A stretch of 15,600 nt of DNA from Candidatus Hadarchaeales archaeon (GTDB lineage: Archaea > Hadarchaeota > Hadarchaeia > Hadarchaeales > Hadarchaeaceae): contig JAWBCC010000007.1 of NCBI GenBank assembly GCA_038823825.1, forward strand, positions 1-15,600, written 5' to 3'. Below, in pieces: positions 1 through 15,600 of the stretch (the first letter of the stretch is position 1; every line of letters begins with the position of its first letter). The position numbers and the translations under genes are program-made. A model generated the notes under the pieces. That model saw only the letters and a program-made list of their open reading frames with translations, had not been told where the DNA came from and made no database searches.

Positions 1-2545
1 CCTCCGAGACTGAGCATCCAGTTGTGTCTATGTAGGCTGATCCTAGCGGACAGCTGAAGCTCCACGTTCCTTCACTCTTCGTGGCCTGCCACGTGTAGTG
101 GTTTCTCGTGCTGTCTGGGTCGCCACTGCCCAGAGAGCTCTCATAAGCCATCAAAGTTATGCTTGAGAGGTTCATATTTCCGTCCGAAACTGTTACAGTA
201 ACCGTGGTCCAGACATATGGCGTCCAGATTATTTCCGCTGGAACCACGCTCTGAACCTCTGGAGGAACGTTGGGCGTCTGCTGAATGGTAGCAGAAGCAG
301 GTAGCGCTGCAGCTGACGCGGTGTACGTCACCAAGAGATAGGGTCGGAGAGAAGCTGTTTCGTATTCTTTTGAATACCAATATGGCTCCGCGCTGTTCCA
401 GTCACTTCTCTCATCAACTGCTTTCACAGCAAGCGAAACGATTTTGTCGCCTGCGAACTGGTCTGAGACCCAGCTGGTGACATCCCAGCTCTCCCAGAAG
501 TTTTGCAATTTCGTCGGACGTGGAGAAACTCCCGTCCATCTGACGTAATCCACATAGAAAGTTCCGCTCGTTTCGATTGTAATCTTGAACAAACCATAAG
601 CTTGTCCCAGATTACTCCAATCGCTCGCCGGGATGGTTATCTCCTGCCATCTGTCAGTTCCATCCCATCCATAGTTACTTATATACTTGGTTTGCGTGGT
701 GCCCTGTGGCGCTTCTATCTCAACCTTTAGATTTGCAGTAGTTTTGACCCAGAATTTCAGGGCGGTCGCACTTGAGAGGTCTACGGTGTGATCATAGGGA
801 AGCCTGATAAACACTCCCCATCCAGCCCAGTTGCCCGTCGTTGAGGTCCGGAAACACCTTGTTCCTTCAGGAGAAGGCATGACATAATTCCGATCAAAAG
901 TCGCAGTACCTGATTCATCGTACCAAGTCAAGATTTCAGAGTTGACTGGGATACCGGCGTCAGAGTAGGGGGAAATCCCGACCCATCTAACCTTGTCGAT
1001 ATAGAATGTCCCGCTTGATTCAATCGTTATCTTGAATGGACTGTAAACTTGGTCGAGATTCTGCCATTCGCTGGCTGGAATAGTTATCTGTTGCCATCTG
1101 TCAGTTCCATCCCACCCATACCAGTTCAGATACTTTGTCTGGGTATTTCCCTTCGGCGCCTCGATTTCGATCTTCAGATTTGCCGGTGTTTTTACCCAGA
1201 ACCTTAAAGCTGTTGCTCCTGAGAGGTTTATGTAAACTGGCAGATCGAAGTGAAGTAGCAGAACGGTGTTCTCATTTGCTCCGAGATATCTCCCAGCTCC
1301 ATTGTTGTATCTGTAAGAAACTTCCTCCGAGCTTATCGCCTGATTCTCCACCCTAACCTCGTCTATTATCCCCTTGAAGAATCCCCAATCGCCATCGGCC
1401 TTTCTTCCCACGCATAGAGGCCTTGTGTTAGATGCTATGTTTCCCGTCCATGGTTCTGTGGCAACCAGAGAACCGTCGTAATAAAGCCTCAGATATGAGC
1501 CGTCAAATGTTCCAACTAGATGATGCCAGCCTGTTTGGAATGTTGTCTGATACGCAGCAAACGAGCCCCACTCCCCACCTCCTGGACCCACACCGAAAAC
1601 TATTTGGAACTGCCCGTTTTCATCAGTCTCTATATATAGCTCGTATCCCTTTGAATTATTGATGGCTCCTTCAAATTTCGAAACAACAACCTGACGACTA
1701 TTCTCGGCCGGCTGCTCGACAAAGTACGCCCAAGCTTCGACCGTCACTCTCGTCGGGTTTAGGCTTGCGCTGTCCTGAACGGAAACATACGCATTCGTTC
1801 CGTTGAATCCGAGAGCTCTATAGATTTTACCAGAATTTTCTGTAACACCGCCGTTAATTGTTCCATGATTGTTCAATCCGGAGTCGTCTCTCACATTCCT
1901 GTTGATGATAACACCCCAACCTGCCCAACTTCCAGCATTGGTGGATGTCTTGAAAGATTTACTGCCCTCTGGTGGAACTATACCGGTATATTCTACATCA
2001 AAGCTTCCTTGATCCCCCTCCGACCAGGTCCAGACGACAGAATCCGTTGGAATTCCCGCATCTGTGTATACATCATAATATGTGTCCGCAAAATACGTCT
2101 GTGCAACTCCTTCGAGATCTCCTATCGATGGCTGATTGTTCCAAGTTATCGTTGATTCGCTCCAAGCGTCGTTTGAGACCCGGTAGACCCCGATCTCTCT
2201 GTTGGTGTCTCCCGATTCGACGCCGCCATCATCATATCTGTAAAGGAAAAGTTTTGCCCCAGTTATTGTCGCATCACTCGGAATCTGTGAAAGATCAAAT
2301 TTGAGGAAAGATCTTCTGTACCATTCTGGATGCTGACCAGCGGCTGCAATATGGGATTCGCTCCCATAATTTGTGTTTGGCGTATGATTCTCTACCTTAG
2401 CATCAGCAACCGGAGAAAGCTTTACAGACCCATAAACTATTGTGGTCGCGGTACTCTGCGGGACTAGGAAAAGTTGCGGGGAAAGTGCAATTGATATTAA
2501 CATTATGGACAGACAAACCGAGAGGATTTGAGACTTTTTGAACAT
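1..2545 (-). CDS. Secreted multidomain lectin-like protein, 3'-truncated by the left window edge (848 codons visible). Absent from the supplied ORF track
   Basis: I translated the reverse strand by hand. From the ATG at 2545-2543 the frame stays open to position 2 with no stop. A GAGGT Shine-Dalgarno lies about 5 nt upstream. The N-terminus MFKKSQILSVCLSIMLISIALS looks like a Sec signal peptide. DNRLRE-type secreted-domain motifs are present: RSFLKFDLSQIPSDATITGAKLFLY, WSESTITWNNQP, WESWDVTSWV, RPYLLVTY. LamG/Laminin_G_3 motifs are present: GLNNHGTINGG, WHHLVGTFDGSYLRLYYDG, FKGIIDEVRVENQAIS. Two CBM-like copies end in TFYIDKVRW and TFYVDYVRW. The last ~80 aa (..NHYTWQATKSEGTWSFSCPLGSAYID..) are paralogous to the N-terminal domain of the 3803..5203 product. 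Confidence 0.85.
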   Translation of the reverse strand, partial: MFKKSQILSVCLSIMLISIALSPQLFLVPQSTATTIVYGSVKLSPVADAKVENHTPNTNYGSESHIAAAGQHPEWYRRSFLKFDLSQIPSDATITGAKLFLYRYDDGGVESGDTNREIGVYRVSNDAWSESTITWNNQPSIGDLEGVAQTYFADTYYDVYTDAGIPTDSVVWTWSEGDQGSFDVEYTGIVPPEGSKSFKTSTNAGSWAGWGVIINRNVRDDSGLNNHGTINGGVTENSGKIYRALGFNGTNAYVSVQDSASLNPTRVTVEAWAYFVEQPAENSRQVVVSKFEGAINNSKGYELYIETDENGQFQIVFGVGPGGGEWGSFAAYQTTFQTGWHHLVGTFDGSYLRLYYDGSLVATEPWTGNIASNTRPLCVGRKADGDWGFFKGIIDEVRVENQAISSEEVSYRYNNGAGRYLGANENTVLLLHFDLPVYINLSGATALRFWVKTPANLKIEIEAPKGNTQTKYLNWYGWDGTDRWQQITIPASEWQNLDQVYSPFKITIESSGTFYIDKVRWVGISPYSDAGIPVNSEILTWYDESGTATFDRNYVMPSPEGTRCFRTSTTGNWAGWGVFIRLPYDHTVDLSSATALKFWVKTTANLKVEIEAPQGTTQTKYISNYGWDGTDRWQEITIPASDWSNLGQAYGLFKITIETSGTFYVDYVRWTGVSPRPTKLQNFWESWDVTSWVSDQFAGDKIVSLAVKAVDERSDWNSAEPYWYSKEYETASLRPYLLVTYTASAAALPASATIQQTPNVPPEVQSVVPAEIIWTPYVWTTVTVTVSDGNMNLSSITLMAYESSLGSGDPDSTRNHYTWQATKSEGTWSFSCPLGSAYIDTTGCSVSE
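536..1243 (-). repeat. Intragenic duplication of a ~140-aa galactose-binding-like (CBM-type) domain within the 1..2545 ORF
   Basis: The protein copies align: ATALRFWVKTPANLKIEIEAPKGNTQTKYLNWYGWDGTDRWQQITIPASEWQNL..FKITIESSGTFYIDKVRW versus ATALKFWVKTTANLKVEIEAPQGTTQTKYISNYGWDGTDRWQEITIPASDWSNL..FKITIETSGTFYVDYVRW. At DNA level, tgccatctgtcagttccatccca is identical at about 1092-1114 and about 644-666. Confidence 0.75.
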
Positions 2546-2635: not shown

Positions 2636-3730
2636 TCATGAAAATTTCAAAATCACAGCTATTATTAAGATTAAGACGATTACCGAAACCACGGCAACAA
2701 CAGGCACAGTTGGAAATGGTTTCGGTTTCTCTACAATCAGCAGGCTGCTCAAACCATCGACAGAGATCGTGTGCTCGCCAGGCTCCTCGACGGATACTGT
2801 GAAATCTACTGTTGTTCTTTGTCCAGCCGCAAGCAACACTTCTCTCGTTTCAATCTGAACTCCGTCTATCTTCAGAGTTAGAGTGTAACTTCCAGAAATC
2901 GTTCCAACGTTTGCGACATCAACAGAAGCGGTCACTTGCTCACCTGGCCTGGCTCGATTTTTCGACAGCCGGAGATTTTCCACAGCAAATTCGGCTACCT
3001 CCTCCGAAACCGTTACTATTCGGGAGAATCCATCCACAGAAACCGTGTGGGTCCCAATCTGTTGTATCGAGAGAGAAAAGGTTACCGTTGCCGACTGACC
3101 TGGATTAAGCTCAACTTGTCTGTTGTCGATCTGTGTCCCGTTCAACCTCAAGATGACGTTGTAACTCCCGGCAATCGTTCCGAAGTTTACAACGCTAACC
3201 TGTACACTGAATGTTTCGCCCGGCCTGAGAGCCGATTTAGATATGCTGAGATTTTCCAGTCTGAACTGTGCCATTCCCACGATGTTCAAAATGGCGCTTA
3301 AATTATCCACGGAGATAGTGTGGGGTCCCAGCTGCAGAATGGATACTGTGAAAGAAACCGTTGTCGATTGTCCGGCTGCTAGATAGACAGTTAGGTTATC
3401 CACAACGTTGTTATCGACACGCAAAACTAACGTGTGTTGTCCATCTGCCGTGCCTACATTTTTCACAGTTACCTGAACAGTGACATTCTCGCCAGGAAGC
3501 GCGTTATCCTTAGATAGTTTCAAATTTTCTATCACAAACTGCGCAACATTCTCGGGCGGAGGTAGAGGTGGAGGCGGCGGGGGAGGAGGGATGTTTTCCG
3601 GCAAAACCGTCACCTGAACCTGAATAGGAATCTCTTGTGGGGCAATAACCGGCATGCAAAACAGAATGAGCATAAACACACTTGTTAAAATCGAGATCGC
3701 TCTTCTCATTTTTTCACCTTTTCTTTTCAT
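2636..3730 (-). CDS. Surface protein: signal peptide, polyproline hinge, three CARDB-like repeats and a C-terminal TM anchor. No recognisable catalytic domain
   Basis: ORF of 364 aa. MRRAISILTSVFMLILFCMPVIA is a signal peptide. The true start may be the second ATG at 3709, because GGTGA precedes it and the BRE/TATA at 3737-3753 predicts a transcription start near 3715. PPPPPPPPLPPP is a linker. There are three ~91-aa repeats of the form F.(I/L/V)ENL.(L/I)SK...PGE.(V/F)...V.V.N.G...G...L.L..(D/N)......V.L..GQ..TV.F..S....G.HT(I/V)SVD, which is a CARDB-type pattern. The C-terminal helix is VVAVVSVIVLILIIAVILKFS. Confidence 0.85.
   Translation of the reverse strand: MKRKGEKMRRAISILTSVFMLILFCMPVIAPQEIPIQVQVTVLPENIPPPPPPPPLPPPENVAQFVIENLKLSKDNALPGENVTVQVTVKNVGTADGQHTLVLRVDNNVVDNLTVYLAAGQSTTVSFTVSILQLGPHTISVDNLSAILNIVGMAQFRLENLSISKSALRPGETFSVQVSVVNFGTIAGSYNVILRLNGTQIDNRQVELNPGQSATVTFSLSIQQIGTHTVSVDGFSRIVTVSEEVAEFAVENLRLSKNRARPGEQVTASVDVANVGTISGSYTLTLKIDGVQIETREVLLAAGQRTTVDFTVSVEEPGEHTISVDGLSSLLIVEKPKPFPTVPVVAVVSVIVLILIIAVILKFS
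2732..3538 (-). repeat. Three tandem ~275-nt coding repeats (CARDB-like domains)
   Basis: The protein-level periodicity is clear, at aa 65-150, 156-241 and 248-333 of the 364-aa product. Divergence is typical of domain repeats rather than a recent DNA duplication. Confidence 0.8.
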
Positions 3731-3802: not shown

Positions 3803-5203
3803 TTATGGCTGTTGGGTTGAGAGCCAGATGTCATCCCAGAAGATGTCGGTTGATGGAACCGCAGTCGACGTTCTCTGAGCAGTTATGTAAATTCTTGCCC
3901 TTACCGCGTTCTCTGGAGCAGTAACTTGATAGGACACCTGTACCCAAGAGTCAAAAGCTGTTGCTGTGAAACCGCTGCCCGGTGTCTGTATGTAACCGCT
4001 ATCGTTTTCCCAGTATGGATACCATCTCACTCTGAAGAATAATCTATAGTTCTCCGGAAGAGCTCCACCTCCAGGATTCACTATATAGTAGTATCCCACA
4101 AGGTAGTACGTCGCGCCCGGGGTGAAGTTTGTAATGTTGTCTGAAGTCACGTATGAGCCATAACTGGTTGCCAGCTGTGTCTGCTTCGCCGAGTAACTAC
4201 CAGTTCTGGCGCGCTCACTAGATCTCGTCGAGTACGGTGGGGAGAACTGCCAGAAAGTGTCGTCCTCAAAGCTCGGGTTCTGAACCAAGTTCTGGGGTGA
4301 TGGGGGTACTATCAGAGTTTCCACTCTTACGTAAAACGTGTTTGTGTAGTTTCCTGCGACAACATTGCTCGGTATGTCCAGCCTCCACTGTATCTGTCTC
4401 TGAACACTTTCTCCATATGAAACATTCTTCCAGACGTTCTCGTACGTCGTGCTCAAGGAGACTTCTTCTTCACCTATCGCTTTTGCCGCGCTCGCGGGTA
4501 TTATATTTCCATTGGAGGTAAAGTTACCGGCCGCTTTGACTTTGATGGCGAAGTTCCGGTTTGAAGATACCGTCACAGTCATCGGACTCTGGGTTGCGTA
4601 AACGCTCTGCCCTTTGTAGCCGCTGAAGGAGAGGGTGTATGTGCTCAAAGACATCTCGAGGTAGACCTGAACCATAATCGCGTTGATATTCTCCAAATAG
4701 TTGTCTAAGCCAACGTTGTCTACTGCTCTAACATAAAGATCCCAAAATCCTGAAGCCGCGATCCTCGCAAGTTTCACCCGGAAGATTGCAGTGTATGTGT
4801 TTTCGGTCGGGTTCTCCTGAACTGACGAGTTGATGTTATCAATATAGTTCGCTCCAAGCGGACAGCTGAATCGCCAAGTTCCCGTGCTTTTCGAAGCCAC
4901 CCATGTGTAGTGGTTTCTGACGTTGTCGGGTGCCGCGTTATCGAGAGAGTTTTCGTAGGCCATTAGATAAATATTTTCCAAGTTCATCTCGTTGTCGTAA
5001 ACCACCACTACAATATTTGACCAGATGTTTGGAATTATCTCGACATTTTCTGGAGAAACCATGAGAACTGACGGTGGGTAGTATGGAATCTCCCAGATCT
5101 CTACTTCGACGTTAACCTGCTGCTCCTGATCCTGAGAGAGAACCGCCGGAATCATCGAAATGCTGATCAACAGTCCTAATAGAAGAGACACACTCTTCTT
5201 CAT
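3803..5203 (-). CDS. Secreted non-catalytic protein with two uncharacterised beta-sandwich domains (D1 'HYTW', D2 'QWRLDIP') and a C-terminal CBM4_9-like carbohydrate-binding domain. No membrane anchor
   Basis: ORF of 466 aa with an ATG start and a GGAGG Shine-Dalgarno 8 nt upstream. The signal peptide is MKKSVSLLLGLLISISMIPAVLS/QDQ. The C-terminal ~160 aa begin NLVQNPSFEDDTFWQF, continue ..ARTGSYSAK..PGATYYL.., and end FWDDIWL, which matches the CBM_4_9 (galactose-binding-like) pattern. The sequence carries 7 N-x-S/T sequons. D1 and D2 have paralogs at both window edges. Confidence 0.85.
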   Translation of the reverse strand: MKKSVSLLLGLLISISMIPAVLSQDQEQQVNVEVEIWEIPYYPPSVLMVSPENVEIIPNIWSNIVVVVYDNEMNLENIYLMAYENSLDNAAPDNVRNHYTWVASKSTGTWRFSCPLGANYIDNINSSVQENPTENTYTAIFRVKLARIAASGFWDLYVRAVDNVGLDNYLENINAIMVQVYLEMSLSTYTLSFSGYKGQSVYATQSPMTVTVSSNRNFAIKVKAAGNFTSNGNIIPASAAKAIGEEEVSLSTTYENVWKNVSYGESVQRQIQWRLDIPSNVVAGNYTNTFYVRVETLIVPPSPQNLVQNPSFEDDTFWQFSPPYSTRSSERARTGSYSAKQTQLATSYGSYVTSDNITNFTPGATYYLVGYYYIVNPGGGALPENYRLFFRVRWYPYWENDSGYIQTPGSGFTATAFDSWVQVSYQVTAPENAVRARIYITAQRTSTAVPSTDIFWDDIWLSTQQP

Positions 5204-5276: not shown

Positions 5277-8200
5277 TTATTTGATTAGGAAAAACTTGAA
5301 AATCGCGAAAATGGCGCCTCCAATGGCTATCACAACTCCCACGACCCAAAGTGGAAAACCTGAAGGAACCACTTCCACGCTCTCGCTGAGCCCGTCCACA
5401 TTCACGGTGTGTGTTCCACTCTCATCGATTGACAAAGTGAAAAACACACATACAGACTCCCCCGCTGGAATCTCCAGAATTTTCTCATCTTTCTCGACGT
5501 TGTCAACAGCAAGCTTTATTGTTGTCTGCCCGGTCTCGTCACCGACATTTTTAACCCAGACATAAACCTTGAACTTTTCGCCGGGTGAAACTCTTCTCTT
5601 GGAAAGGCTCATGTTCTCGATGACGAAGACGGCCGGAGACCTCACAGTCAGCAGCAAGTTCTCCGACCACATTTTGCCGCCTCCGCTTACCGTCAGGCGC
5701 AGAGTGTACGTTCCCGCTTGGGCATTCGACCCAACCGAAACCGTCAGAGTTGATGTAAACGATGGAACTCCGGAAGACTGAGAAAAGGAAGCAGAGGAAT
5801 CTTGAGGAAGACCGGTCACCGAAAGATACATCGGTAGTTTAATTCCCGAAAGATAACCAATGGTAATCGTGAACGTCACAGATTCGCCGCGAAGAACCGT
5901 CCTTGATCTCGGAGAGACCGAAAGAGATATCTGTGGCGGCTGAACATTACCGAGATAGAAAATGAATTTCCCGCTTTCCCTTCTGTTTCCCATGCGATCT
6001 ACTGCAACAACAAACCATTCGTAGAAATTTTCGCCCAGTGCCGTGTTGTAAGTTGTGGCCGTCACATTTTCCACATTTTGTCCATTTATCCAGACTTCAT
6101 AATGGGAGAGCCCAGAAATTTCGTCCGAGGTAGCCTGCCACTGAAGGATGGGTGACTCTGAGAGGTGCGAACCGTTCTCCGGCGAAATTAGAGAAAACTG
6201 AAGAGGTGGTGTGAAATCCGCTACAAAGGTTTTCACAAGGCCCATCACCACCTTCCCGCTGTTGTTGTCCATAGCGACTGCGCGGAATTCGTAGGTTGAA
6301 TTTTCCATGATCCCCGAGACTATCGCCGAGAACCATTCACGCCAGCTCATTGTCCGTTTAGTGGTCTGGCTCCAAGAACCGCCCGCCGGTCTCCATTCCA
6401 ACCAGACCACAGTTTCCTGGTTATCAAGATCTTCAAGAAAACCGGAAAGAAGAACCGAACCAGATTGAACAGCCAGAGGATTTCCTGTCGTTGAGATTAT
6501 GGGAACCGCCTGTCCGTAAAAGGCGAAACTCGAAACTGATGGTGAGTGTGTTACATTTTCCGAGCGCAATGAAAACGTTACTCTCACAAATCTCGTCTGG
6601 GGAAGAGAGAGCGGAATTTTCTCAACACCTCCACTTAGAGTTATCCATCCGGTATTTTCCGCTGCCGTGGACCCGTCAAGTGAAGTCTCTACAAGAATCT
6701 TTACTTCTTCTCCCTGCGCGATCTTCGAGGATACTTCGAGAAATTCTAAAGACGACGTTTGGCCAAGATCGATCCAGTTTGAGATCCACTGACCGGATGT
6801 TTTGACTTCAGACAGCCCAGAATATAAAATCTTTATCTCGCTTTCAGACAGAGGTCTCCCGAAAACCATCACTTCATCGATCAATCCGTCGAAGCCCTCA
6901 CCTCCTCCGGGTTGATTTCCAATTGTGAACGAATTGGTATTTGAATTCAACCTCCCGAAGGAAGCCGGAGCTTCCCCAAGTCGAACCGCGTTGTCTTTGT
7001 AAATTCTGATTTTGCTCCCATCCCAGACGGCCGCTATTAGACTCCACGAATTGTTTGGAAAGTTTTGATCGGGGACCTCAAGCGTGTACTTGTTTCCAGC
7101 AGAATCCCAGACCATAAACGCGGTTGTTCCCCTAGCGCTCTCATTCACTCTCAACAGATAAACAATGTCTTTTTTCACGATTTCTCCGTTGTGCGGCTTC
7201 GAGCGCGGATTTATCCAAGCAACTATCGAAAGCCCAGAGAGTCCTTCCAAGATATCTTTATCTCCGACCTCTACTCTCGCCGTCCCTCCGGGAAAATCTA
7301 AAGCTCCGCCGATCCGTCCAGTAACCCATGATGCGCCAATAACCGTCCCGTGATTGCCGTAGCCGCTAGAGTCGTAAGCGGTTGCCCCAGATCCTTCATC
7401 GAATTTCCACCATCCGATTGGATCGAGCTTTATCAATTCGATCCCACCATATTGTTTGATTAAGAGATTTCCAGAGGTTGATCCAATTGACCACTCCTCC
7501 TGCGTATCGACAGAAAGAAGACTCTCCCTTTCTCTTACTGGAGCTCTAGCCAATCCAACGTACATGTCCGCTGCGCCGTAGTAAAGATACCAAATATTAT
7601 CAACTCTGACGAGACCTTCAGCGAAAACGCAATCCACGACCTGACCTGTCCTTTCCCAAGAGAACTCTGGTCGCATGAATGGCTCCTCGCATCTCGCCAC
7701 AATTTTGGTCGGGTCTCTTAACGAAAAAATGACCCAGCCAACTCTCATCATTCCTCCCGAGCCGAGCGGAGCATCAAGCGAGTTGTAAAGGAGGAATATT
7801 CCATTTTGAAGAACGAACGGTGCTGGTCCGGGTTCTATTGTAAGAGCATCAAAATATCCCCCGCGCCTTCGCATAACGACACCCCCAAGTGTCCAGTCTG
7901 TCAAGTTTTCGGAAAAGGCGTAGTAGAGATCGCCACCTCCAGCTCCCGCCTCCAGATACATCCAATATTTTCCATTTATCTTCACGGGGACTATAGCGCC
8001 GGATTTTGTCCACAGGCTTGTGTCTCTGAACGCAAGTCCAACCTTTTCCCAATTTTCTAAATTAGCGGATCTGGCAAGGGCAAGCCTCGCTGTGGTCCCA
8101 TCATAAGCCGTATACGTCATCCAGAAAGTTTCACCGATCTTCACAATTCTTGGGTCTTCGCATCCTCCACCGAGCTCATACCATTCTGTTGGAGCTATTG

Positions 8201-8924
8201 CTGGATTCGGTCTACGCTGCCAGTTTATTCCATCTGTGCTTGTGGCCATGCCGATTACGGAAGGTCCTCCATGTGAAGCCTGCGCCCTATAAAACATGTA
8301 GAAAACTCCATTGTGATAGGCAACAGCGGGATTATATGCGGCATACCCATCAAACCCGCTCCCACTTGGCCCAAAAACCGGAGAATTTTCCTTTACCCAT
8401 TCGTTCTCGAAGAATGGGGGTTTCGACTCTGCCTTTTTCACCGGAATGTTTTCCCGCCGGTTTACCTTGAATCTCTCCGGAAATTCCCTGCTTGATCCAT
8501 CCACACCAACCCAGACGCTCCAATTTCCAGGAGATGCTTTCCTATCAAGTTTTACTCTAAATGTCCATAGACCGGTGGAAACAGAGGATTTTGACGGATC
8601 GATATATCCAAATCCTGGACCTACCTCGGAGAACCCTTCACCCGACCGCCATCTGAATGTGTAGTGCTCCTCCAAGGAATCCCGAGCTTCAGGAGAAACT
8701 CCAGCTTTGTATAACTTGAGCAGAACCTCACTCGCGTTACCCGAAATCTGAACGCCTACGGAAAACCACACTTCCGGATCTATGTTGTCAAGAATTATTA
8801 TCGCGGATATCTGTGGAGCTGATTGCGCAAAAACAGTTGCTTCCGAAGTTGAAGCGATAAGAGTAAAAGCAGCTAAGAAAAAGACGAGTATCCTCCCGGA
8901 CTTCAAATCCGTCATCGTCTTCAC
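5277..8924 (-). CDS. Secreted, C-terminally membrane-anchored GH130-family (DUF377, beta-mannoside phosphorylase/hydrolase fold) multidomain protein
   Basis: ORF of 1215 aa. The start is either GTG at 8924, overlapping the upstream stop by 4 nt, or ATG at 8915, which is preceded by GAGTGA.
Domains, by aa:
- Signal peptide ..LIASTSEATVFA/QS.
- 37-155: D1-like domain (EEHYTFRW..GYIDPSKSSV..WTFRVKL..NWSVWVGVD).
- 172-462: GH130 motifs (YNPAVAYHNGVFYMFYRAQ, GMATSTDGINW, GCEDPRIV, WMTYTAYDG, YYGAADMYVGLA).
- 503-702: LamG (WWKFDEGSGATAYDSSGYGNHG..FDGLIDEVMVFGRPLSESEI).
- About 705-1095: about four further beta-sandwich, Fn3-like or Ig-like domains.
- 1099-1186: CARDB.
- TM helix WVVGVVIAIGGAIFAIF plus KFFLIK tail. 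Confidence 0.9.
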   Translation of the reverse strand: MKTMTDLKSGRILVFFLAAFTLIASTSEATVFAQSAPQISAIIILDNIDPEVWFSVGVQISGNASEVLLKLYKAGVSPEARDSLEEHYTFRWRSGEGFSEVGPGFGYIDPSKSSVSTGLWTFRVKLDRKASPGNWSVWVGVDGSSREFPERFKVNRRENIPVKKAESKPPFFENEWVKENSPVFGPSGSGFDGYAAYNPAVAYHNGVFYMFYRAQASHGGPSVIGMATSTDGINWQRRPNPAIAPTEWYELGGGCEDPRIVKIGETFWMTYTAYDGTTARLALARSANLENWEKVGLAFRDTSLWTKSGAIVPVKINGKYWMYLEAGAGGGDLYYAFSENLTDWTLGGVVMRRRGGYFDALTIEPGPAPFVLQNGIFLLYNSLDAPLGSGGMMRVGWVIFSLRDPTKIVARCEEPFMRPEFSWERTGQVVDCVFAEGLVRVDNIWYLYYGAADMYVGLARAPVRERESLLSVDTQEEWSIGSTSGNLLIKQYGGIELIKLDPIGWWKFDEGSGATAYDSSGYGNHGTVIGASWVTGRIGGALDFPGGTARVEVGDKDILEGLSGLSIVAWINPRSKPHNGEIVKKDIVYLLRVNESARGTTAFMVWDSAGNKYTLEVPDQNFPNNSWSLIAAVWDGSKIRIYKDNAVRLGEAPASFGRLNSNTNSFTIGNQPGGGEGFDGLIDEVMVFGRPLSESEIKILYSGLSEVKTSGQWISNWIDLGQTSSLEFLEVSSKIAQGEEVKILVETSLDGSTAAENTGWITLSGGVEKIPLSLPQTRFVRVTFSLRSENVTHSPSVSSFAFYGQAVPIISTTGNPLAVQSGSVLLSGFLEDLDNQETVVWLEWRPAGGSWSQTTKRTMSWREWFSAIVSGIMENSTYEFRAVAMDNNSGKVVMGLVKTFVADFTPPLQFSLISPENGSHLSESPILQWQATSDEISGLSHYEVWINGQNVENVTATTYNTALGENFYEWFVVAVDRMGNRRESGKFIFYLGNVQPPQISLSVSPRSRTVLRGESVTFTITIGYLSGIKLPMYLSVTGLPQDSSASFSQSSGVPSFTSTLTVSVGSNAQAGTYTLRLTVSGGGKMWSENLLLTVRSPAVFVIENMSLSKRRVSPGEKFKVYVWVKNVGDETGQTTIKLAVDNVEKDEKILEIPAGESVCVFFTLSIDESGTHTVNVDGLSESVEVVPSGFPLWVVGVVIAIGGAIFAIFKFFLIK

Positions 8925-9469
8925 TCGATTATTTTAGTAATTCGCTTTATCTCTGGATCTGTGAAAACATCGTGCTCATCGGTGCTAGTTGTGGAAAACT
9001 CAGAAACCACAGCTCCCTTCGGTCCAGCCTGGAACCAGTGCAACGTGTTTGGCGGAATTGTATACTGATCGCCAGGCTTCAGCACTATCTCATGTCTGGC
9101 TGTGAAATACTTTTCTCTTCCCTTAGGAATCTTGGCATGAATCTTTGGAGAAGGCTCGCCCGGCACGTAAAGGTATACTTTGCCCCAGCGACATCTGAAG
9201 GTCTCCATTTTTCCTGGTCTCTCACCAACTGGCGGATGTCTGTGCTCCGGACAAGTCTGATGGGGAAATAGAATCAACTCTTTCGCGCAGTAATAATCGT
9301 TGTTCACATAAACAACAAGCTGGAGTCCTATCCTCTCGACATCATTGAGACCGAAATCTGCAACCTCCATTTTTTCCTTTTCTTCTTTTGTCAGAACGAT
9401 TCCCGCCTGTTTGAGAAGCCTCAGCGCCCGGTCCCTGTACCTTCTCCATTGTTCGCGAGTTATTGCCAA
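8921..9469 (-). CDS. Cupin-fold D-lyxose/D-mannose ketol-isomerase (YdaE-like family), cytoplasmic
   Basis: ORF of 182 aa with a TTG start and a GGGAGG Shine-Dalgarno 9 nt upstream. From memory, the motifs match the lyxose isomerase family: EVADFGL, GLQLVVYVNNDYYCAKELILFPHQTCPEHRHPP, ETFRCRWGKVYLYV, YTIPPNTLHWFQAGPKGAVVSEFSTTSTDEHDVFTDP. No signal peptide is present. The stop overlaps the next gene's start (GTGA). Confidence 0.8.
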   Translation of the reverse strand: MAITREQWRRYRDRALRLLKQAGIVLTKEEKEKMEVADFGLNDVERIGLQLVVYVNNDYYCAKELILFPHQTCPEHRHPPVGERPGKMETFRCRWGKVYLYVPGEPSPKIHAKIPKGREKYFTARHEIVLKPGDQYTIPPNTLHWFQAGPKGAVVSEFSTTSTDEHDVFTDPEIKRITKIIE

Positions 9470-9545: not shown

Positions 9546-10391
9546 CTAATGAGCTTCTTCCTCCTCCATTATCGCCATCATGAAGTATCTATGGAGGAGA
9601 ACGTAGATAACCAGCAGAGGCAAAACGGTCAGAATCGCACCTGCCATAAATAGATTCCACTTGGCGAGTCCTCCCATCATTCCGAAGAGTCCTACAGTCA
9701 CGGGCATCGCCTGAGACTCTACTCCACCGAGAACAAGACCAAAGAGAAAGTCGTTCCAAATCGAAGTGAACTGATAAATCATCACGGAAATGATGGCTGG
9801 TTTAGACGCCGGTAGAATTACCTTTCTGTAGATTTCCCAGTCGCTCGCTTTTCTTTTCTTCAATTCCCTTATTTTTTTGTCTGGAATGTGCGTGTAGAAG
9901 TTTCTAAAGAGAAGTGTGCAGATCGGAATTCCGTAAACTGTGTGAACGAAAACCATGCCGGGAAGAGTATACGTGAGATTCAGTTCGCTCATCGTCCTGA
10001 AAAGGGGAAAGACAATCGTCGTGTAAGGTAGGAATGTTCCTGCGACCAAAACCATGAAGAGCAACTCCTTATACCTGAACTTCTGCTTGGAGAATACATA
10101 ACCCATCCAAGATCCTATGATTATAGAGCAGAGAACCGCACCTGTCGTGAAGACTAGACTGTTGAGTAGTGGTCTCCCGAGTTTTTCTATGGCTTCTCCG
10201 TAAGCTTCCAAGGTCGGACTCCGGGGTGGCGCGAGCGGATTTGTGGTCCCTATTTCCGCCCAAGGCTTCAAAGAAGTGACTAAAGCGACCCAAATTGGGA
10301 GAAGGAAAATGAAGGTTACCACTATCAGAATCGCGTATATCAAAAGTCTTTTCCAATTCTTTTTGATATAATTCAAAACTTTCGCGATCAT
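9546..10391 (-). CDS. Carbohydrate ABC transporter permease (CUT1, MalG-like)
   Basis: ORF of 281 aa with six predicted hydrophobic helices. The BPD_transp_1-type loop reads ..KASDWEIYRKVILPASKPAIISVMIYQFTSIWNDFLFGLVL. The ATG overlaps the upstream stop (ATGA). Confidence 0.9.
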   Translation of the reverse strand: MIAKVLNYIKKNWKRLLIYAILIVVTFIFLLPIWVALVTSLKPWAEIGTTNPLAPPRSPTLEAYGEAIEKLGRPLLNSLVFTTGAVLCSIIIGSWMGYVFSKQKFRYKELLFMVLVAGTFLPYTTIVFPLFRTMSELNLTYTLPGMVFVHTVYGIPICTLLFRNFYTHIPDKKIRELKKRKASDWEIYRKVILPASKPAIISVMIYQFTSIWNDFLFGLVLGGVESQAMPVTVGLFGMMGGLAKWNLFMAGAILTVLPLLVIYVLLHRYFMMAIMEEEEAH

Positions 10392-11242
10392 CTATGTCCC
10401 CTGTATGAGAACCAGACGTATGGGAGAACTATCGCCAAAACTATTCCGACGAGAATGTTACCAATCACTGCCCCGTAGGCGACGTTCATTTTCTGGTAAG
10501 CTTCCACATAAACCAAAATTGGGAGGGTGTAGTAAGAGCCTGGAGGATACCCCCGAGCCATCGTCCACAGGAGATCAAAGGATGCTTTGAGAACAAAAAC
10601 GAAGATGACCACCGCACAACTCAGCAGAGGTATTCTCAACCTTGGAAACTCGACTTTCCAGAATATCTGCCACCAGTTCATCCCTTTTTTCCTTGCATTT
10701 TCTATTTCTTTTCTCGGAACAGATTTGAGACCGGCCAGCAAGACCAACGCAGAGTAACCTGAGAACTGCCAGATTATCGGAATCAAAACTGAAGCGAGTA
10801 TTGCGGATGAGCTTATCCAGTCGCGAGCAAAGAAACCCAATCTTATCGACCTCAGAAGTGAGTTTATCGCACCATCCGGCTGAAACATCCAAGACCATAT
10901 GACCCCAGTCACAACGAGTGAGAATGCAAACGGAAGTAGGAAGATTATGGTGAATATTTTTATCCCCTTTACTCGCTGGTTGAGCAAAAATGCGAGAAAT
11001 AGTCCTGCGGCAAGACAAAGCGGAATTGCGGAGAAGAGAATGAACGTGTTGAGAAGAGATCTCCCGAAGAGATCGCTTTTTATTACGGCAGAGTAGTTGC
11101 TGAGACCCACAAAATTGTACGAGGGAATCGCTCCCTTCCAATCGGTGAAGGAAATCACAACGTTCCAAGTGACCATTCCGTAAACGAAGTAGGCTGCCAG
11201 AACAAAGAGAACCAACACGGTTAGGAGTGTTGTTCTCTCCAA
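10388..11242 (-). CDS. Carbohydrate ABC transporter permease (CUT1, MalF-like)
   Basis: ORF of 284 aa and polytopic. The conserved loop reads EIENARKKGMNWWQIFWKVEFPRLRIPLL. It has a TTG start with GGGAG 5 nt upstream, 13 nt after the binding-protein stop. Confidence 0.9.
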   Translation of the reverse strand: MERTTLLTVLVLFVLAAYFVYGMVTWNVVISFTDWKGAIPSYNFVGLSNYSAVIKSDLFGRSLLNTFILFSAIPLCLAAGLFLAFLLNQRVKGIKIFTIIFLLPFAFSLVVTGVIWSWMFQPDGAINSLLRSIRLGFFARDWISSSAILASVLIPIIWQFSGYSALVLLAGLKSVPRKEIENARKKGMNWWQIFWKVEFPRLRIPLLSCAVVIFVFVLKASFDLLWTMARGYPPGSYYTLPILVYVEAYQKMNVAYGAVIGNILVGIVLAIVLPYVWFSYRGHR

Positions 11243-11255
11243 GAATCTCCCTCTA

Positions 11256-12614
11256 TCAGACGATGTCCCACGATATCGTGTAGGTTCCGGAGCGTATCAG
11301 AGAAGCGATTGTTGATGCCGAAGCGCTCACATTCTGGAACTCCACAAACTCGCTTATCTTCGGGTGAAGGTCGTACAGGATTTCGTTCGGAATGGCTATC
11401 CCGTGAGTGAAGCTCGGATAAAACTTAGTCTGCGGATTCCTCAGAGCAGAAGCCGCGTTCCTCGCATAACTGTTGGTGTATATATTGTCTGGAACATCAC
11501 GATAGGGGGAAACCGAACCTTTGACCGGGTTGAAGCTTGATTGAACCTCTAATGTCGTGTAAGAATAAACCCACCTTAGACCTCCAATCACATTACCTTT
11601 CTTCGGAACAACAAAACCGTCAACCACTAGACCAAACAAGTTTTCCGTTCCTGGCGCCAAAAAGATGTCGTACTGAACTCCAAGCGTCCATCCTCTCTGC
11701 TCGAAGTAAGCGTTGGCCCAATCGCCATGCACGTACATCGCAACACGACCGTTAAAGAGCTGACCGCAAGCCTCCGCCCAATTTCTAGCACGGTGATCAT
11801 CTGGAACATAACTCAAATATCTTTTGAATAACTGGAGGATTGGCTCCAGCTCTTCCGCCGTAACCGTTCCGTTTATGAACTTCTCATAGGTTTGTAGGCT
11901 ATATCCAGCCATTATTGTTTCAAATATTTGGGTGGCAGCCCAGTCAGTCCCCATTCCGTCACCAACCTCTAGCGGATAGATGTTCAGACCTCTCTCTTGT
12001 GCCCTCTGCTTGATTAAGTCACATAGATTGAAGAATTCTTCCCAAGTTCTAGGTGGATTCGTCATATCTATTCCGAGTTGCTGTAGGAGTTGCTTGTTGT
12101 AGAAAACTACATTCGTTCTGTGTACCCCAACTGGAACCAAATAGTAATTCCCATCAAGCTTGCACATCTTCTCTACTATAGCCGGTACACGTTCGGCAAT
12201 GTTCGCATACTCCCACAGATCGTTAAGATTTCTCAGATAGTATCCTCCGTATCTAGCTGTTTCGTAGCCGGGATGAGACTGGAAGGAACCCGGAATGTTT
12301 GTCCCGGCCACAAGAGAGGGAAGAATCCTCGGCGGCATGTTTCCACCGGCGCCTCCGGGCACGGGGACGGGCGTGAGAGTCATGTTCGGATAAAGCTGTT
12401 CCATCTTGTTCTTAAGAACTCTAAAACCTTGTTCCTCGACATCTATTGTCCACCAGTGGGCTACGCTCACGTTTCCACTTGCCTGATAATTTTCCACAAT
12501 TTCTTGAACATTCTCAGTAACTTCTGCCGGTCCTTCACGTCTCGTCACGACCAAAACCAATCCAGCAATTACAAGAATACCTATGACCACTGCGAGTATT
12601 TGCGTTATCTTCAA
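11256..12614 (-). CDS. Extracellular sugar-binding protein of the ABC transporter (family 1 / CUT1) with an N-terminal membrane anchor
   Basis: ORF of 452 aa. The N-terminal helix is ILAVVIGILVIAGLVLVV, followed by a long soluble domain of SBP_bac_1 size and character. TTG is the only possible start, because an in-frame stop lies 9 codons upstream with no other start codon between. GGAGG lies 8 nt upstream. The gene sits directly upstream of the two permeases. Confidence 0.8.
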   Translation of the reverse strand: MKITQILAVVIGILVIAGLVLVVTRREGPAEVTENVQEIVENYQASGNVSVAHWWTIDVEEQGFRVLKNKMEQLYPNMTLTPVPVPGGAGGNMPPRILPSLVAGTNIPGSFQSHPGYETARYGGYYLRNLNDLWEYANIAERVPAIVEKMCKLDGNYYLVPVGVHRTNVVFYNKQLLQQLGIDMTNPPRTWEEFFNLCDLIKQRAQERGLNIYPLEVGDGMGTDWAATQIFETIMAGYSLQTYEKFINGTVTAEELEPILQLFKRYLSYVPDDHRARNWAEACGQLFNGRVAMYVHGDWANAYFEQRGWTLGVQYDIFLAPGTENLFGLVVDGFVVPKKGNVIGGLRWVYSYTTLEVQSSFNPVKGSVSPYRDVPDNIYTNSYARNAASALRNPQTKFYPSFTHGIAIPNEILYDLHPKISEFVEFQNVSASASTIASLIRSGTYTISWDIV

Positions 12615-12616
12615 GT

Positions 12617-15361
12617 TTATCTCCTCCTTCCTTTTTTCATTCTAAGCACATAAAAACCAAACGCTAAAACAATGAACGCTGCTACTGATATAATTGCAAT
12701 GATGAATGTTGAGCCGAGGCCCGGTGTTCCTACAACGAAAGACGCCTGAAAGTTCTCAAGATCGATGGTATGCGTTCCCAAGGACAAAGCATGCGAGTAA
12801 ATGTTAAACACCACCGGAAGGGATTCCCCAGGCTGAAGAGAAACAGTTCTTGAATCCACAACAATCCCATCAAGCTTTAGCTGCAGGGTCTTCTCCACCA
12901 CTCTCGAGCTCTGGTTAGTAACGGTGACCTTAACTTTCAGAATGTCTCCTCGAGAGATGGAATTCGCCGATAAAGAGAAATTACTCAGAAGGATGTCGGA
13001 AACGGTAGAGCTAGACATGGAGGGTGGAGGCTCGCTCACGCCCCAGCTCGTGTTTGGATTTGGCCCCATCCAAAGCTCTAGCGTTCCTCCATTTATTATT
13101 TCAGAATGCCAGAGCCAAGCTCTTTCAAGTGGCTGCCCATTGAGTTTAGCTGATTGAACGTAAATGTTCGTTGGTGAATTGTTGTAAACGATTATTTCAA
13201 ACTTTTTGTTTTGACCGTAAAAGCTCGGCAGATTTATCGTTATCTTGTCAAAAATGGGGCTTCCGATGACATACGTGAGACTAGGTGGACAAACCGGATA
13301 GAAACCCATAGAACTGAAAATAAACCACGCTGACATCTGACCGCAATCATCATTTCCGGGTAGACCGTGGGGACCGAGCCGATATCTCGTCTCCAGAACA
13401 TTTCTCACCCAGTATTGTGTTCTCCATGGAGCTCCCGCATATACAAAGAGATAGGCGATGTGATGGCTCGGCTCGTTGCCGTGCCAGTAGTATCTCACCC
13501 TTCCCTGTTCCGTGAATCTGTTATCCGCAAGAAGAGAAGGTTCTTCGCTTTTTTCGAAGAGTCTTTCCAGCTTTCCGATGAAATTCTCCTTCCCCATTAC
13601 GTCTATTAGCCCCTGAACATCGTGCGGAACGAACCAAGTGTACTGCCACGGATTTCCTTCATTTGGTTGAGTTATATATGAGTAATAGCCCCGCGGGTCG
13701 AAGGGTTCTTCCCAGGTCCCATCGGATTTTCTTCCTTGAACATATCCTTTGTAGGGATTGCCGGGTTCGCCTGGAGCTTCCGGATTGTAAACATTCCTCC
13801 AGTTTGTTGCACGTTGCATGAAGTATCTATAATCGTTGTCCTTCCCAAGAGCTTTTGCGAGTTGTGCTATACACCAATCGTCGTAAGCATACTCTAAGGT
13901 CAGGGAAACAGATTCGCGGTATCCCCTATCGGTCGGACAGTAACCGAGAGTCATGTAGTCTTCAATTCCCGTTCTTGCCTCATAGAACGGAGGTGGACTC
14001 TGAGTAGCGTTCTTCACCATGGCCTCATATGCCTTCTGAACGTCGAAGTCCGTTATTCCCTTTAGATACGCCTCAGTCACCAAAGAATCTCCGTGAGTTC
14101 CGATCATTATACTCGAATAACCAGGGTTGGGCCACTTTGGCATCCACCCTCCCTGTTCGTACATGGCAACCAGAGAACGCATCATATCCCTAACTCTTTC
14201 CGGAACTAGGAAAATTTGGAGAGCGTGCAGGGCCCTGAAGGTGTCCCACATTGAAAAATCATTGTAGAACTCCCAGCCGTCGCATGTATGCACACGTGCG
14301 TCAAAAACGCTGAAATATTTTCCGTATTCGGATGAGACCCTGGGAAGGAGAAGTGCATGATAGAGCGCCGTGTAGAATTTTATTTTATCGGCGTCTGTTC
14401 CACCCTCAACTCGGATCATGCTGAGAAGCTGGTTCCACTTCTGTCTAGCCTGCTGTCTAACACCATCGAAGTCCCAACCAGGAATTTCAGCTTGCATGTT
14501 GTAACGAGCCTGCTCAACGCTTATGAATGAGATGCTCGCTTTCACGTAAACAACTTCTCCTGCGCTTACGGGGAAAGATACCCAAGCACCAGAATTGTAT
14601 GCGCGCACCTCAGTGTTGCCAGGATTTTTTGTGGAGCCCTGATATGTTCCCCACGAAGTAAACTGCTTGCTGAAGGTAACAACGTAGTATCCTTTGAATT
14701 CACCAGTTGGGGCTCTGTATAAACCGACGTCAGAATATCCGACAATCTCATTGTTTTCAGGTATTATCTTAGACCAACCTGTTCCTAAATGCGTGTCTAT
14801 CAAAATGTGAGCATTGCCCGAGTTTTCGAATGTAAGCCTAAGAAGACCGACGCGCATAGTCGAGGTGACTTCTACTCGAATCCCATAGTCATCGAATGTG
14901 ACCGCATAATAGCCGGGGGTTGCGATCTCCGTTTCGTGCCTTATCCTCGAGGATCTCTCCGGACCTGTTTTGACCTCGCTCCCGAACATCGGCATGATCG
15001 TTATGCATGCATAATCAGACATGCAGGAGCCGCTCGGGAAGTGCGATCCCCTTATTCCTGCTATTTCCATCGTGTCTGCTGGCTTCCACCTTCCTCCCTC
15101 CTCGATGAATATGTATTCATATGGATAGGAAATGTCTGAGGCCTGCTCCTTTCTCACCGGATCCCATGTTGTCATTGCGAAAGGAACAGCGGCGCCTGGA
15201 CTTGTGTGACCATGACGAGTTCCGATGAAAGGATCTACATAATCAACCGGATCCGTGCCACGCGGAGAAGTGAGCCAAGGAACAGATGCAGATGCAGAGC
15301 TTATAAAAATAAGAAGAAAAATCGTCATAACGACTAGACTTCTCCCGAATTCTCTATTCAT
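12617..15361 (-). CDS. Secreted GH92 alpha-mannosidase with a C-terminal CARDB domain and membrane anchor
   Basis: ORF of 914 aa. The signal peptide is ..IFLLIFISSASAS/VPW. GH92 signatures are present: DYVDPFIGT, LEYAYDDWCIAQLAKALGK, GNPWQYTWFVPHDVQGLI, YWHGNEPSHHIAYLF, LPGNDDCGQMSAWFIFSSMGFYPVCP. The CARDB-like domain spans aa 790-874, the TM helix is STFIIAIISVAAFIVLAFGFYVL, and the basic tail is RMKKGRRR. An ATG start has GGGAGGGG about 9 nt upstream. Confidence 0.93.
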   Translation of the reverse strand: MNREFGRSLVVMTIFLLIFISSASASVPWLTSPRGTDPVDYVDPFIGTRHGHTSPGAAVPFAMTTWDPVRKEQASDISYPYEYIFIEEGGRWKPADTMEIAGIRGSHFPSGSCMSDYACITIMPMFGSEVKTGPERSSRIRHETEIATPGYYAVTFDDYGIRVEVTSTMRVGLLRLTFENSGNAHILIDTHLGTGWSKIIPENNEIVGYSDVGLYRAPTGEFKGYYVVTFSKQFTSWGTYQGSTKNPGNTEVRAYNSGAWVSFPVSAGEVVYVKASISFISVEQARYNMQAEIPGWDFDGVRQQARQKWNQLLSMIRVEGGTDADKIKFYTALYHALLLPRVSSEYGKYFSVFDARVHTCDGWEFYNDFSMWDTFRALHALQIFLVPERVRDMMRSLVAMYEQGGWMPKWPNPGYSSIMIGTHGDSLVTEAYLKGITDFDVQKAYEAMVKNATQSPPPFYEARTGIEDYMTLGYCPTDRGYRESVSLTLEYAYDDWCIAQLAKALGKDNDYRYFMQRATNWRNVYNPEAPGEPGNPYKGYVQGRKSDGTWEEPFDPRGYYSYITQPNEGNPWQYTWFVPHDVQGLIDVMGKENFIGKLERLFEKSEEPSLLADNRFTEQGRVRYYWHGNEPSHHIAYLFVYAGAPWRTQYWVRNVLETRYRLGPHGLPGNDDCGQMSAWFIFSSMGFYPVCPPSLTYVIGSPIFDKITINLPSFYGQNKKFEIIVYNNSPTNIYVQSAKLNGQPLERAWLWHSEIINGGTLELWMGPNPNTSWGVSEPPPSMSSSTVSDILLSNFSLSANSISRGDILKVKVTVTNQSSRVVEKTLQLKLDGIVVDSRTVSLQPGESLPVVFNIYSHALSLGTHTIDLENFQASFVVGTPGLGSTFIIAIISVAAFIVLAFGFYVLRMKKGRRR

Positions 15362-15473: not shown

Positions 15474-15600
15474 TTAGGCCGAAACTCTCACGTAGAATGT
15501 GTTCGTGTAGTCTCCTGGAACTGCGTCGGCAGGTATGTCGAGTCTCCACTGAATCTGCTTCTGAACATCTTCACCGTAGGAGACATTGCTCCAGACTGCT
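15474..15600 (-). CDS. 3' end (41 codons plus stop) of a gene encoding a paralog of domain D2 of the 466-aa protein. Absent from the ORF track
   Basis: My translation of the reverse strand gives AVWSNVSYGEDVQKQIQWRLDIPADAVPGDYTNTFYVRVSA*. This aligns with NVWKNVSYGESVQRQIQWRLDIPSNVVAGNYTNTFYVRVET of the 3803..5203 product. By eye, DNA identity to 4316-4440 is about 75 percent. Confidence 0.8.
   Translation of the reverse strand, partial: AVWSNVSYGEDVQKQIQWRLDIPADAVPGDYTNTFYVRVSA

Follow-up and report, generated by a model that had tools for sequence, protein, structure and literature searches.

The WxL or Csc clusters of Firmicutes (Lactobacillales and Bacillales) comprise small WxL proteins, large proteins with a C-terminal WxL domain, and WxLIP proteins made of Ig-like domains and a transmembrane (TM) helix (PMC9772566, PMC10599100), and a role in carbohydrate utilisation has been proposed for the Csc clusters (PMC9772566, PMC10599100, PMC1534035). 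They are, by analogy only, the closest documented logic for a two-domain module, named here D1-D2, which recurs in four genes of a 15,600-nt stretch of a contig from a Candidatus Hadarchaeales metagenome-assembled genome (MAG). This whole stretch is called the window; positions are those of its forward strand, and all of its genes and features described below are encoded on the minus strand. The reference copy of the module belongs to p466, a secreted protein of 466 aa (3803..5203) which, by translation, Pfam and NCBIfam, comprises a signal peptide, D1-D2 and a C-terminal CBM4_9-like domain. The D1-D2 family appears to act like known surface-display modules and belongs to none of them. It is tentatively considered a module for protein-protein assembly and cell-surface retention, a reading to which we would give a little less than an even chance.

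The likeness to WxL clusters lies in their layout. D1-D2 is found in small secreted proteins which hold the module only and in large ones whose varied, adhesin-like or lectin-like N-termini are always followed by the module at the end of the chain; the modules of the two classes are distinct subtypes, and their genes often share the cluster with one for a protein in which Ig-like domains lead up to a C-terminal TM helix. Despite this parallel layout, no homology to WxL/Csc or to adhesin-tipped pili was detectable, and hmmscan against Pfam-A (E up to 0.1-1) gave no WxL (PF13731) match on the window proteins and 37 diverse family members; the WxLIP profile did not match the module either. Instead of the dual Trp-x-Leu motif, D2 carries a single loosely conserved W/F-x-L-D-I-P, with the Trp often shifted by one position. 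D1-D2 consists of two Ig-like sandwiches and ~265 aa, whereas WxL domains have 160-190 aa, and the anchored neighbours of D1-D2 are heterogeneous, whereas WxLIP is built of DUF916, DUF3324 and a TM helix. Moreover, WxL is reported only in bacteria, where it binds peptidoglycan, which these archaea should lack; murein is not expected in Hadarchaeota.

The second group of systems is formed by donor-strand filaments (FimH/FimA, the Saci_0406/0405 threads, TasA and bundling pili, cannulae). Archaeal threads have conserved mature N-termini and an adjacent gene for a related cap protein (PMC9715654). The D1-D2 proteins share with these filaments the Sec signal peptide, the Ig-like subunits, a conserved mature N-terminal strand in the small subunits, an adjacent gene for a related protein with extra domains, and the order in which functional domains are N-terminal and the subunit domain is C-terminal. 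They differ in that no sequence similarity or specific fold similarity was detected and that the monomer model of D1-D2 holds two complete sandwiches. In the D1-D2 loci we identified neither a chaperone or usher nor a dedicated peptidase or isopeptide signature, and the loci read contained no signal peptidase gene. TasA/camelysin (Peptidase_M73) and bundling pilins gave no Pfam, NCBIfam or PDB-sequence match and were absent from the listed Foldseek PDB matches. An earlier reading of the window, made from its sequence only, had kept a TasA-like polymerising role in view; membership in TasA finds no sequence or fold support. Polymerisation of a donor-strand type is conceivable, and a conserved strand does follow the signal peptide of the small proteins.

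Two further systems unite glycan-acting proteins at a cell surface or display them there. As in cohesin-dockerin systems, one non-catalytic module, here D1-D2, is repeated on several proteins of a locus that act on glycans or bind them, and it could unite these proteins at the surface. However, dockerins are small helical repeats which bind Ca and a cohesin is a single jelly roll, while D1-D2 is all-beta; homology was looked for and not found, with no Cohesin (PF00963) or Dockerin (PF00404) match on D1-D2, nor did we see a scaffoldin bearing repeated receptor modules. Like SusE and SusF of Bacteroidota, p466 is non-catalytic and secreted, combines Ig-like domains with a putative carbohydrate-binding module (CBM), and is encoded between glycosidases and a transporter. 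SusE and SusF are, in contrast, lipoproteins with a lipidated cysteine which work with SusCD, whereas p466 has no SusE Pfam match and no lipobox cysteine and its neighbouring transporter is an ABC importer. The SusE/F-like role proposed for p466 is retained as a functional analogy only.

The D1-D2 module and its copies in the window

The recurrence of D1-D2 in four genes, reported by the sequence-only reading, was upheld: the module is N-terminal in p466 and C-terminal in both genes at the window edges, and D1 alone is present in a GH130 protein. Paralogy had been named beforehand as one of the points at which this proposal might fail; it holds by BLASTP and by an independent family profile. 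The p466 protein begins with a signal peptide (~aa 1-23, 5135..5203, MKKSVSLLLGLLISISMIPAVLS), read from the sequence and devoid of a lipobox cysteine, and it has no anchor, as had been stated. The alignment A4, the structure model and column conservation define an N-terminal extension (aa 30-44, 5072..5116, VNVEVEIWEIPYYPP), which in alignment A4 is the counterpart of the strand 'SG.ATV.N.AP.V' conserved in small family members and which is unstructured in the monomer model (~12 residues, pLDDT ~70 over the first 10). D1 (aa 45-166, 4706..5071; AlphaFold model and alignments) is predicted to be an eight-stranded Ig-like beta-sandwich with the motif NHYTW..G.W.FSCPLG..YID, and D2 (aa 167-296, 4316..4705; AlphaFold model) an Ig-like beta-sandwich which ends in QIQWRLDIP....G.YTNTFYVRV. 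The boundaries claimed before modelling (D1 4670-5071, D2 4316-4666) agree with the model.

The AlphaFold2 model m77da7156d36a was built for p466 residues 33-299 from an alignment of 37 diverse relatives. With a mean pLDDT of 96.4 and a pTM of 0.87, it consists of two tandem Ig-like beta-sandwiches, in which the D1 strands span aa 45-162, a long linking strand spans aa 167-178 and D2 extends to aa 296. The pTM points to a fixed arrangement of D1 and D2, and both domains are predicted complete in the monomer, with pLDDT ~98 and no donated strand. The first full-length model of p466 was poor (pLDDT 60) because of a shallow alignment, and its Foldseek run was uninformative. Internal duplication was ruled out as the origin of D1 and D2 (hhalign probability 0.6%). 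The module is best described, according to the model, as one rigid unit of ~265 aa in which two unrelated Ig-like beta-sandwiches follow a short conserved strand.

The module deserves the term undescribed, since no Pfam, NCBIfam or PDB-sequence family exceeded its threshold for D1 or D2 in the window copies and the 37 diverse relatives. Sequence searches of the PDB with phmmer and with a profile found no specific relative of D1-D2. The Foldseek comparison suggested by the sequence-only reading was carried out with the D1-D2 model against PDB and BFVD and returned only generic Ig tandems, at TM-scores of 0.2-0.35, with SafDAA (5y9h) and RbmA among them. The sole outside similarity of D2 is a weak NPCBM_assoc/DUF4625 match on its last two strands (..LDIP.....G.YT.T.YV.V), which resemble the C-terminal hairpin motif of NPCBM_assoc (NEW3), CARDB and DUF11-type domains. 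The best score against NPCBM_assoc/NEW3 (PF10633) was 21.8 bits for a cut-off of 24.4 and covered only the last 33-36 residues; sub-threshold Pfam matches of this type were noted on D2 in 7 of the 37 members and on D1 in none. In addition to the score below the gathering threshold and the short match (~35 residues), D2 differs from these domains in its position, as they are internal repeats placed before anchors and not terminal or whole-protein modules.

The gene at the left edge (1..2545, the 5' part with 848 codons; Pfam and the complete copy L001:12701-15706) retains the N-terminal strand and the first two thirds of D1, cut by the contig end (2..313; BLASTP, profile E 3e-27). In BLASTP among the window proteins against p466 residues 1-300, the identity of this reading frame is 52% over 93 aa (E 4e-24), which confirms the D1 match at a slightly lower figure than the ~55% claimed. 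The right-edge gene (15474..15600; BLASTP and the complete copy L004:6772-8634) is represented by its last 41 codons and stop codon, the end of D2, with 79% identity over 38 aa (E 2e-19) in the same comparison. Recovery of the flanking sequence, also suggested earlier, succeeded: the sister contig JAWBEW010000003.1 (59 kb), 99.96% identical to the window, completes both genes. The complete right-edge protein has 620 aa (signal peptide, DUF2341, D1-D2) and stops directly past D2 with no CBM, just as the fragment had been interpreted. The complete left-edge protein has ~1001-1015 aa and contains a signal peptide, CBM96/DNRLRE, LamG, two repeated beta-sandwiches and a C-terminal D1-D2; both proteins end a few residues past D2 and have no membrane anchor.

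The C-terminal D1-D2 copies of the two edge genes are 97.5% identical in DNA over 747 nt (L004:7870-8634, L001:14942-15688). Both window ends (1-262 and 15492-15600) lie within these near-identical copies, ~15 kb apart in direct orientation, and the truncation of the edge genes is therefore explained as an assembly break at a repeat. The left-edge gene also contains a 262-nt direct repeat (522-783 and 969-1230, 72% identity), which encodes the two beta-sandwich copies with the pattern 'ALRFWVKT.ANLK.EIEAP.G..QTKY..YGWDGTDRWQ.ITIPAS.W' and has no Pfam match.

The fourth copy, D1 without D2, lies at the N-terminus of the GH130 protein (8451..8855; profile A4, BLASTP). BLASTP against p466 residues 1-300, in a tiny database, gave 32% identity over 109 aa (E 1e-6). 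The diverged D1 proposed at this place was substantiated by profile A4, made of 37 members with the GH130 sequence excluded, which matches GH130 residues ~24-158 (HMM positions 30-185, D1 only) with E 5e-19. Comparison with the proteins P0012 and P0049 assigned this copy to the 'HYTF[KR]W..GFSEVGP' type common in large proteins of other lineages, while the other D1 copies of the window are of the derived 'HYTW..FSCPLG' subtype. D1 alone also opens GH130 proteins elsewhere, an example being P0049, a metagenomic protein of 3213 aa which joins D1, GH130, LamG, a second GH130-like domain, GH92, CARDB repeats and a TM helix in one chain. Because enzymes of the window locus are fused there in one polypeptide, P0049 is a Rosetta-stone link between GH130, GH92 and D1.

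Small and large D1-D2 proteins in shared gene clusters

An exhaustive HMMER profile search of 1.84 billion representative proteins returned 145 clusters at E <= 1e-3 and 71 at E <= 1e-10, so the family is rare. Its named sources are restricted to Hadarchaeales/Hadesarchaea MAGs and one record labelled 'subsurface metagenome'; word-index homology searches gave almost nothing past close Hadarchaeales relatives, and a scan of a genome collection added one further locus, from a Hadesarchaea MAG. Nearly all D1-D2 proteins are either small and module-only or large with the module at the extreme C-terminus. The small form (~295-335 aa, ~37 complete stand-alone proteins) consists of a signal peptide and D1-D2, and the large form (430-1600 aa, ~40 proteins) is secreted and has variable N-terminal domains, such as LamG, DUF2341, DNRLRE/CBM96, a beta-helix or propeller-like repeats. 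In the whole 145-cluster search, no protein with a full D1-D2 has a C-terminal TM anchor; such a helix is present in the D1-only proteins P0032, P0049, P0097 and a 320-aa protein of locus L017.

Gene neighbourhoods were read in ~11 independent loci, and in 7-8 of them small and large genes belong to one cluster. The two are directly adjacent in L007, L011, L012, L015, L016 and L017, the arrangement typical of WxL clusters, and close together in two other loci. L017 has the order large-small-large followed by a gene for a protein of strand, D1 and TM helix; in L018 the small and large genes are two genes apart; and in L006, a close relative of the window locus, a small gene stands where the 620-aa gene is, upstream of GH92, and comes after another gene with a terminal D2. 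In 101 of 119 cases, a module has its nearest neighbour within its own class (small or large), where class frequencies alone would give ~52%, and this argues that small and large modules are not mere local duplicates. A distant C-terminal D1-D2 (E 1e-19 to 1e-22) was also observed in two tandem cysteine-rich secreted proteins of 550 aa on a 147-kb JGI contig of 44% GC, whose organism may not be archaeal (L021:1281-4598); the gene after them encodes a protein in which a signal peptide precedes two Ig-like domains and a TM helix.

Proteins that combine a signal peptide and one or two Ig-like domains with a TM helix at the C-terminus are encoded downstream in L004 (182 aa; L004:2022-2567, ~6 kb past the right end of the window), L007 (two; L007:11092-12847), L008 (L008:8915-9472), L012 (two; L012:2334-4044), L018 and L021 (L021:4676-5626). 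Those with coordinates given here also have a linker ahead of the TM helix. Homology is clear between the L007 and L008 proteins (E 1e-30), and the others are weakly similar. No Pfam family was found for the anchored Ig-like proteins near modules, and a WxLIP_PGBD match (E 0.087) was limited to one of them. In L008 (PolB, PD-(D/E)XK nuclease, heliorhodopsin) and L011 (MCM-like helicase), the small and large genes stand amid small unannotated reading frames and replication genes, which hints that some D1-D2 loci are integrated or mobile elements. A viral or mobile origin of the module itself was considered and rejected despite the PolB and MCM-like neighbours, as the viral contig collection held no D1-D2 match and no specific viral fold match appeared.

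The assembly and retention reading is drawn from this anatomy: the module forms the whole protein or its C-terminal end, anchors are absent, two module classes are encoded together, and anchored Ig-like proteins are neighbours. The attachment to the envelope or protein-protein assembly proposed earlier thus receives real, if circumstantial, support from the family at large, and we infer with caution that the module mediates binding. Because the module constitutes a whole secreted protein or a free C-terminal end, it is hardly a spacer or a cleaved sorting signal; a signal like that of the T9SS-CTD was discarded, because a signal meant to be cleaved off would not be expected to form entire proteins by itself. 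A passive Ig tandem, with a spacing or stabilising function and no specific partner, spread by lineage-specific duplication and shuffling, is improbable in our opinion. Ig-like fillers are very common in archaeal surface proteins, the Hadarchaeales copies were recently duplicated, as the 97.5% identity of the C-terminal pair indicates, and the small, CBM-bearing and large forms of that lineage are 72-85% identical among themselves. A spacer would, however, be expected between a functional domain and an anchor, and the small/large pairing is kept across lineages in which module identity is only 22-35%, which argues for selection on a specific role.

Directly past the signal peptide, the small proteins have a conserved strand with the consensus ISGSATVSNVAPSV, as conserved as the folds (2.05 vs 1.68 bits per column), the first half of which is found in only ~40-50% of the large proteins. 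This strand suggests a more specific form of the assembly idea, in which D1-D2 would be the subunit of a new archaeal surface polymer, a filament or lattice. Small proteins would polymerise by donating their N-terminal strand (donor-strand or beta-strand addition) or through lattice contacts, large proteins would be tip or decorating subunits with lectin-like functional heads, like FimH, and the base would consist of TM-anchored proteins with D1 or Ig-like domains. The small-beside-large gene order resembles major/minor pilin operons, L017 encodes a strand, D1 and a TM helix in one protein, and SafDAA is among the generic Foldseek matches. Archaeal threads, bundling pili and cannulae are reported to use N-terminal donor strands and conserved mature N-termini (PMC9715654 for threads). 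On the other hand, both domains are predicted complete with no strand donated to them, there is no sequence or fold match to a thread subunit, TasA, AbpA or CanA, the Hadarchaeales large proteins retain the strand, which blurs the division into tip and shaft, and no assembly factor is conserved nearby. Such a polymer is rather unlikely on balance; if it existed, the window locus would be an archaeal counterpart of the cellulosome or utilisome, with lectin-like binders beside anchored GH92 and GH130 mannosidases.

A mannoside locus with anchored enzymes and module-bearing lectin-like proteins

The window sequence corresponds to contig JAWBDA010000007.1 of a Hadarchaeales MAG (GCA_038822855.1) and is also present in two other MAGs, and the p466 gene is matched exactly in three Hadarchaeales MAG contigs. 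In the order of transcription, the right-edge gene is followed by genes for a TM-anchored GH92 alpha-mannosidase (12617-15361), an ABC sugar-binding protein (11256-12614), two ABC permeases (10388-11242 and 9546-10391), a cupin D-lyxose/mannose-type isomerase (8921-9469), all assigned by Pfam, the GH130 multidomain protein of 1212-1215 aa (5277..8924; Pfam, NCBIfam), p466, a 364-aa CARDB protein (2636..3730; Pfam CARDB E 9e-28) and the left-edge protein. Stop and start codons overlap or abut between the isomerase and GH130 genes (8921-8924), the two permease genes (10388-10391) and the GH92 and binding-protein genes (12614-12617), which suggests a single translationally coupled operon. GTG or TTG is the start codon of several window genes, and Rfam and tRNA scans revealed no RNA gene in the window.

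The GH130 protein is composed of a signal peptide, D1 only, GH130, LamG, Ig-like repeats, CARDB and a C-terminal TM anchor. Signal peptides and C-terminal CARDB domains with TM anchors are found on both the GH130 (5277-8924) and GH92 (12617-15361) products, and these enzymes should therefore act extracellularly. The top NCBIfam matches of GH130 are beta-1,2-mannobiose phosphorylase and the BT3780-type beta-1,2-mannosidase, both far under the cut-off; for an extracellular enzyme, a beta-mannosidase is more likely than a phosphorylase. In the extended locus, all recognisable enzymes (GH92, GH130 and a 1364-aa LamG/GH130-like protein) end in CARDB and a TM helix, and the three proteins with the full D1-D2 carry lectin-like domains, with neither a recognisable catalytic domain nor an anchor.

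The lectin-like part of p466 is its C-terminal domain (aa 303-466, 3806..4297), probably a CBM4_9-type jelly roll according to Pfam and NCBIfam. The CBM4_9 likeness claimed for it proved to be weak: Pfam CBM_4_9 (PF02018) matched with E 0.0068 and 17.2 bits (cut-off 25.9) over profile positions 1-135 of 136, and NCBIfam NTTRR-F1 with E 1.4e-5, also under its cut-off. The structure model of this domain is of low confidence, PDB and database searches found no relatives of it, and the D1-D2 plus CBM layout is limited to three Hadarchaeales clusters. Directly downstream of p466 is encoded the 364-aa CARDB protein, with a signal peptide, a proline-rich linker, three CARDB domains and a C-terminal TM helix. 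It is weakly similar (E 1e-5, small database) to the TM-anchored protein encoded after the small gene of L012, and may be regarded as a candidate membrane-anchored partner of p466. Its proline run PPPPPPPLPPP is located between the signal peptide and the first CARDB domain, and a Cohesin match of 26 residues on it, the only one in the window, is below the threshold length.

The mannoside locus gives rise to a serious rival explanation, namely that D1-D2 is a CBM-like pair which targets the attached domains to mannan, N-glycans or the cell's own glycosylated envelope. The module sits among GH92, GH130 and ABC transporter genes, it is fused to LamG, DUF2341, CBM96 and a CBM4_9-like domain, C-terminal placement is usual for CBMs, D2 is weakly similar to glycosidase accessory Ig domains (NPCBM_assoc, GH123_N, DUF4625), and the glycan-binding matrix protein RbmA is among the Foldseek matches. 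Nevertheless, most other module loci lack a recognisable glycoside hydrolase, the strict stand-alone/C-terminal pairing and the two module classes are not expected of a CBM, no CBM family was matched, and every Foldseek match is a generic Ig tandem of low TM-score. A CBM role of D1-D2 is held to be rather unlikely.

If D1-D2 serves in assembly and surface retention, the locus could work as follows. GH92 and GH130 would be tethered by their own C-terminal TM helices, while the 620-aa DUF2341 protein, the 1001-aa CBM96 and LamG protein and the CBM4_9-like p466 would be binders retained by D1-D2. These anchor-less proteins would stay at the surface through contacts of their modules with each other, with small stand-alone members and/or with anchored Ig-like proteins encoded nearby, and the lone D1 at the distal N-terminus of GH130 would be a possible docking point. 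The resulting surface complex would capture and degrade mannosides beside the ABC importer and the cytoplasmic isomerase. Several observations weigh against such a role. The monomer model is complete and confident with no partner; surface loci of archaea commonly encode Ig-like proteins with a TM anchor, and the downstream 'partners' are only partly alike; no small stand-alone member was found within 30 kb in the window's own lineage, although the related contig of L006 has one; most relatives come from metagenomic contigs with no taxonomy or cell-envelope type; and, given the glycan locus, a beta-sandwich at the C-terminus might be nothing more than a carbohydrate-binding module.

The module bears on a question with few answers so far, namely how archaea that possess neither a cell wall polymer nor a sortase signal nor a lipid anchor retain secreted glycan-binding proteins and enzymes, especially in uncultured lineages such as Hadarchaeota. 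The D1-D2 family is a concrete candidate here, with a 265-aa module, a confident model, clusters of small, large and anchor genes, and a mannoside locus of anchored enzymes and module-bearing binders. If the module turns out to be a CBM, thermophilic archaea would have yielded a new carbohydrate-binding family. Should the assembly role prove true, D1-D2 would represent an independently arisen archaeal system working like WxL, cohesin-dockerin or adhesin-tipped pili, and more than 100 'hypothetical' surface proteins would gain a better annotation.

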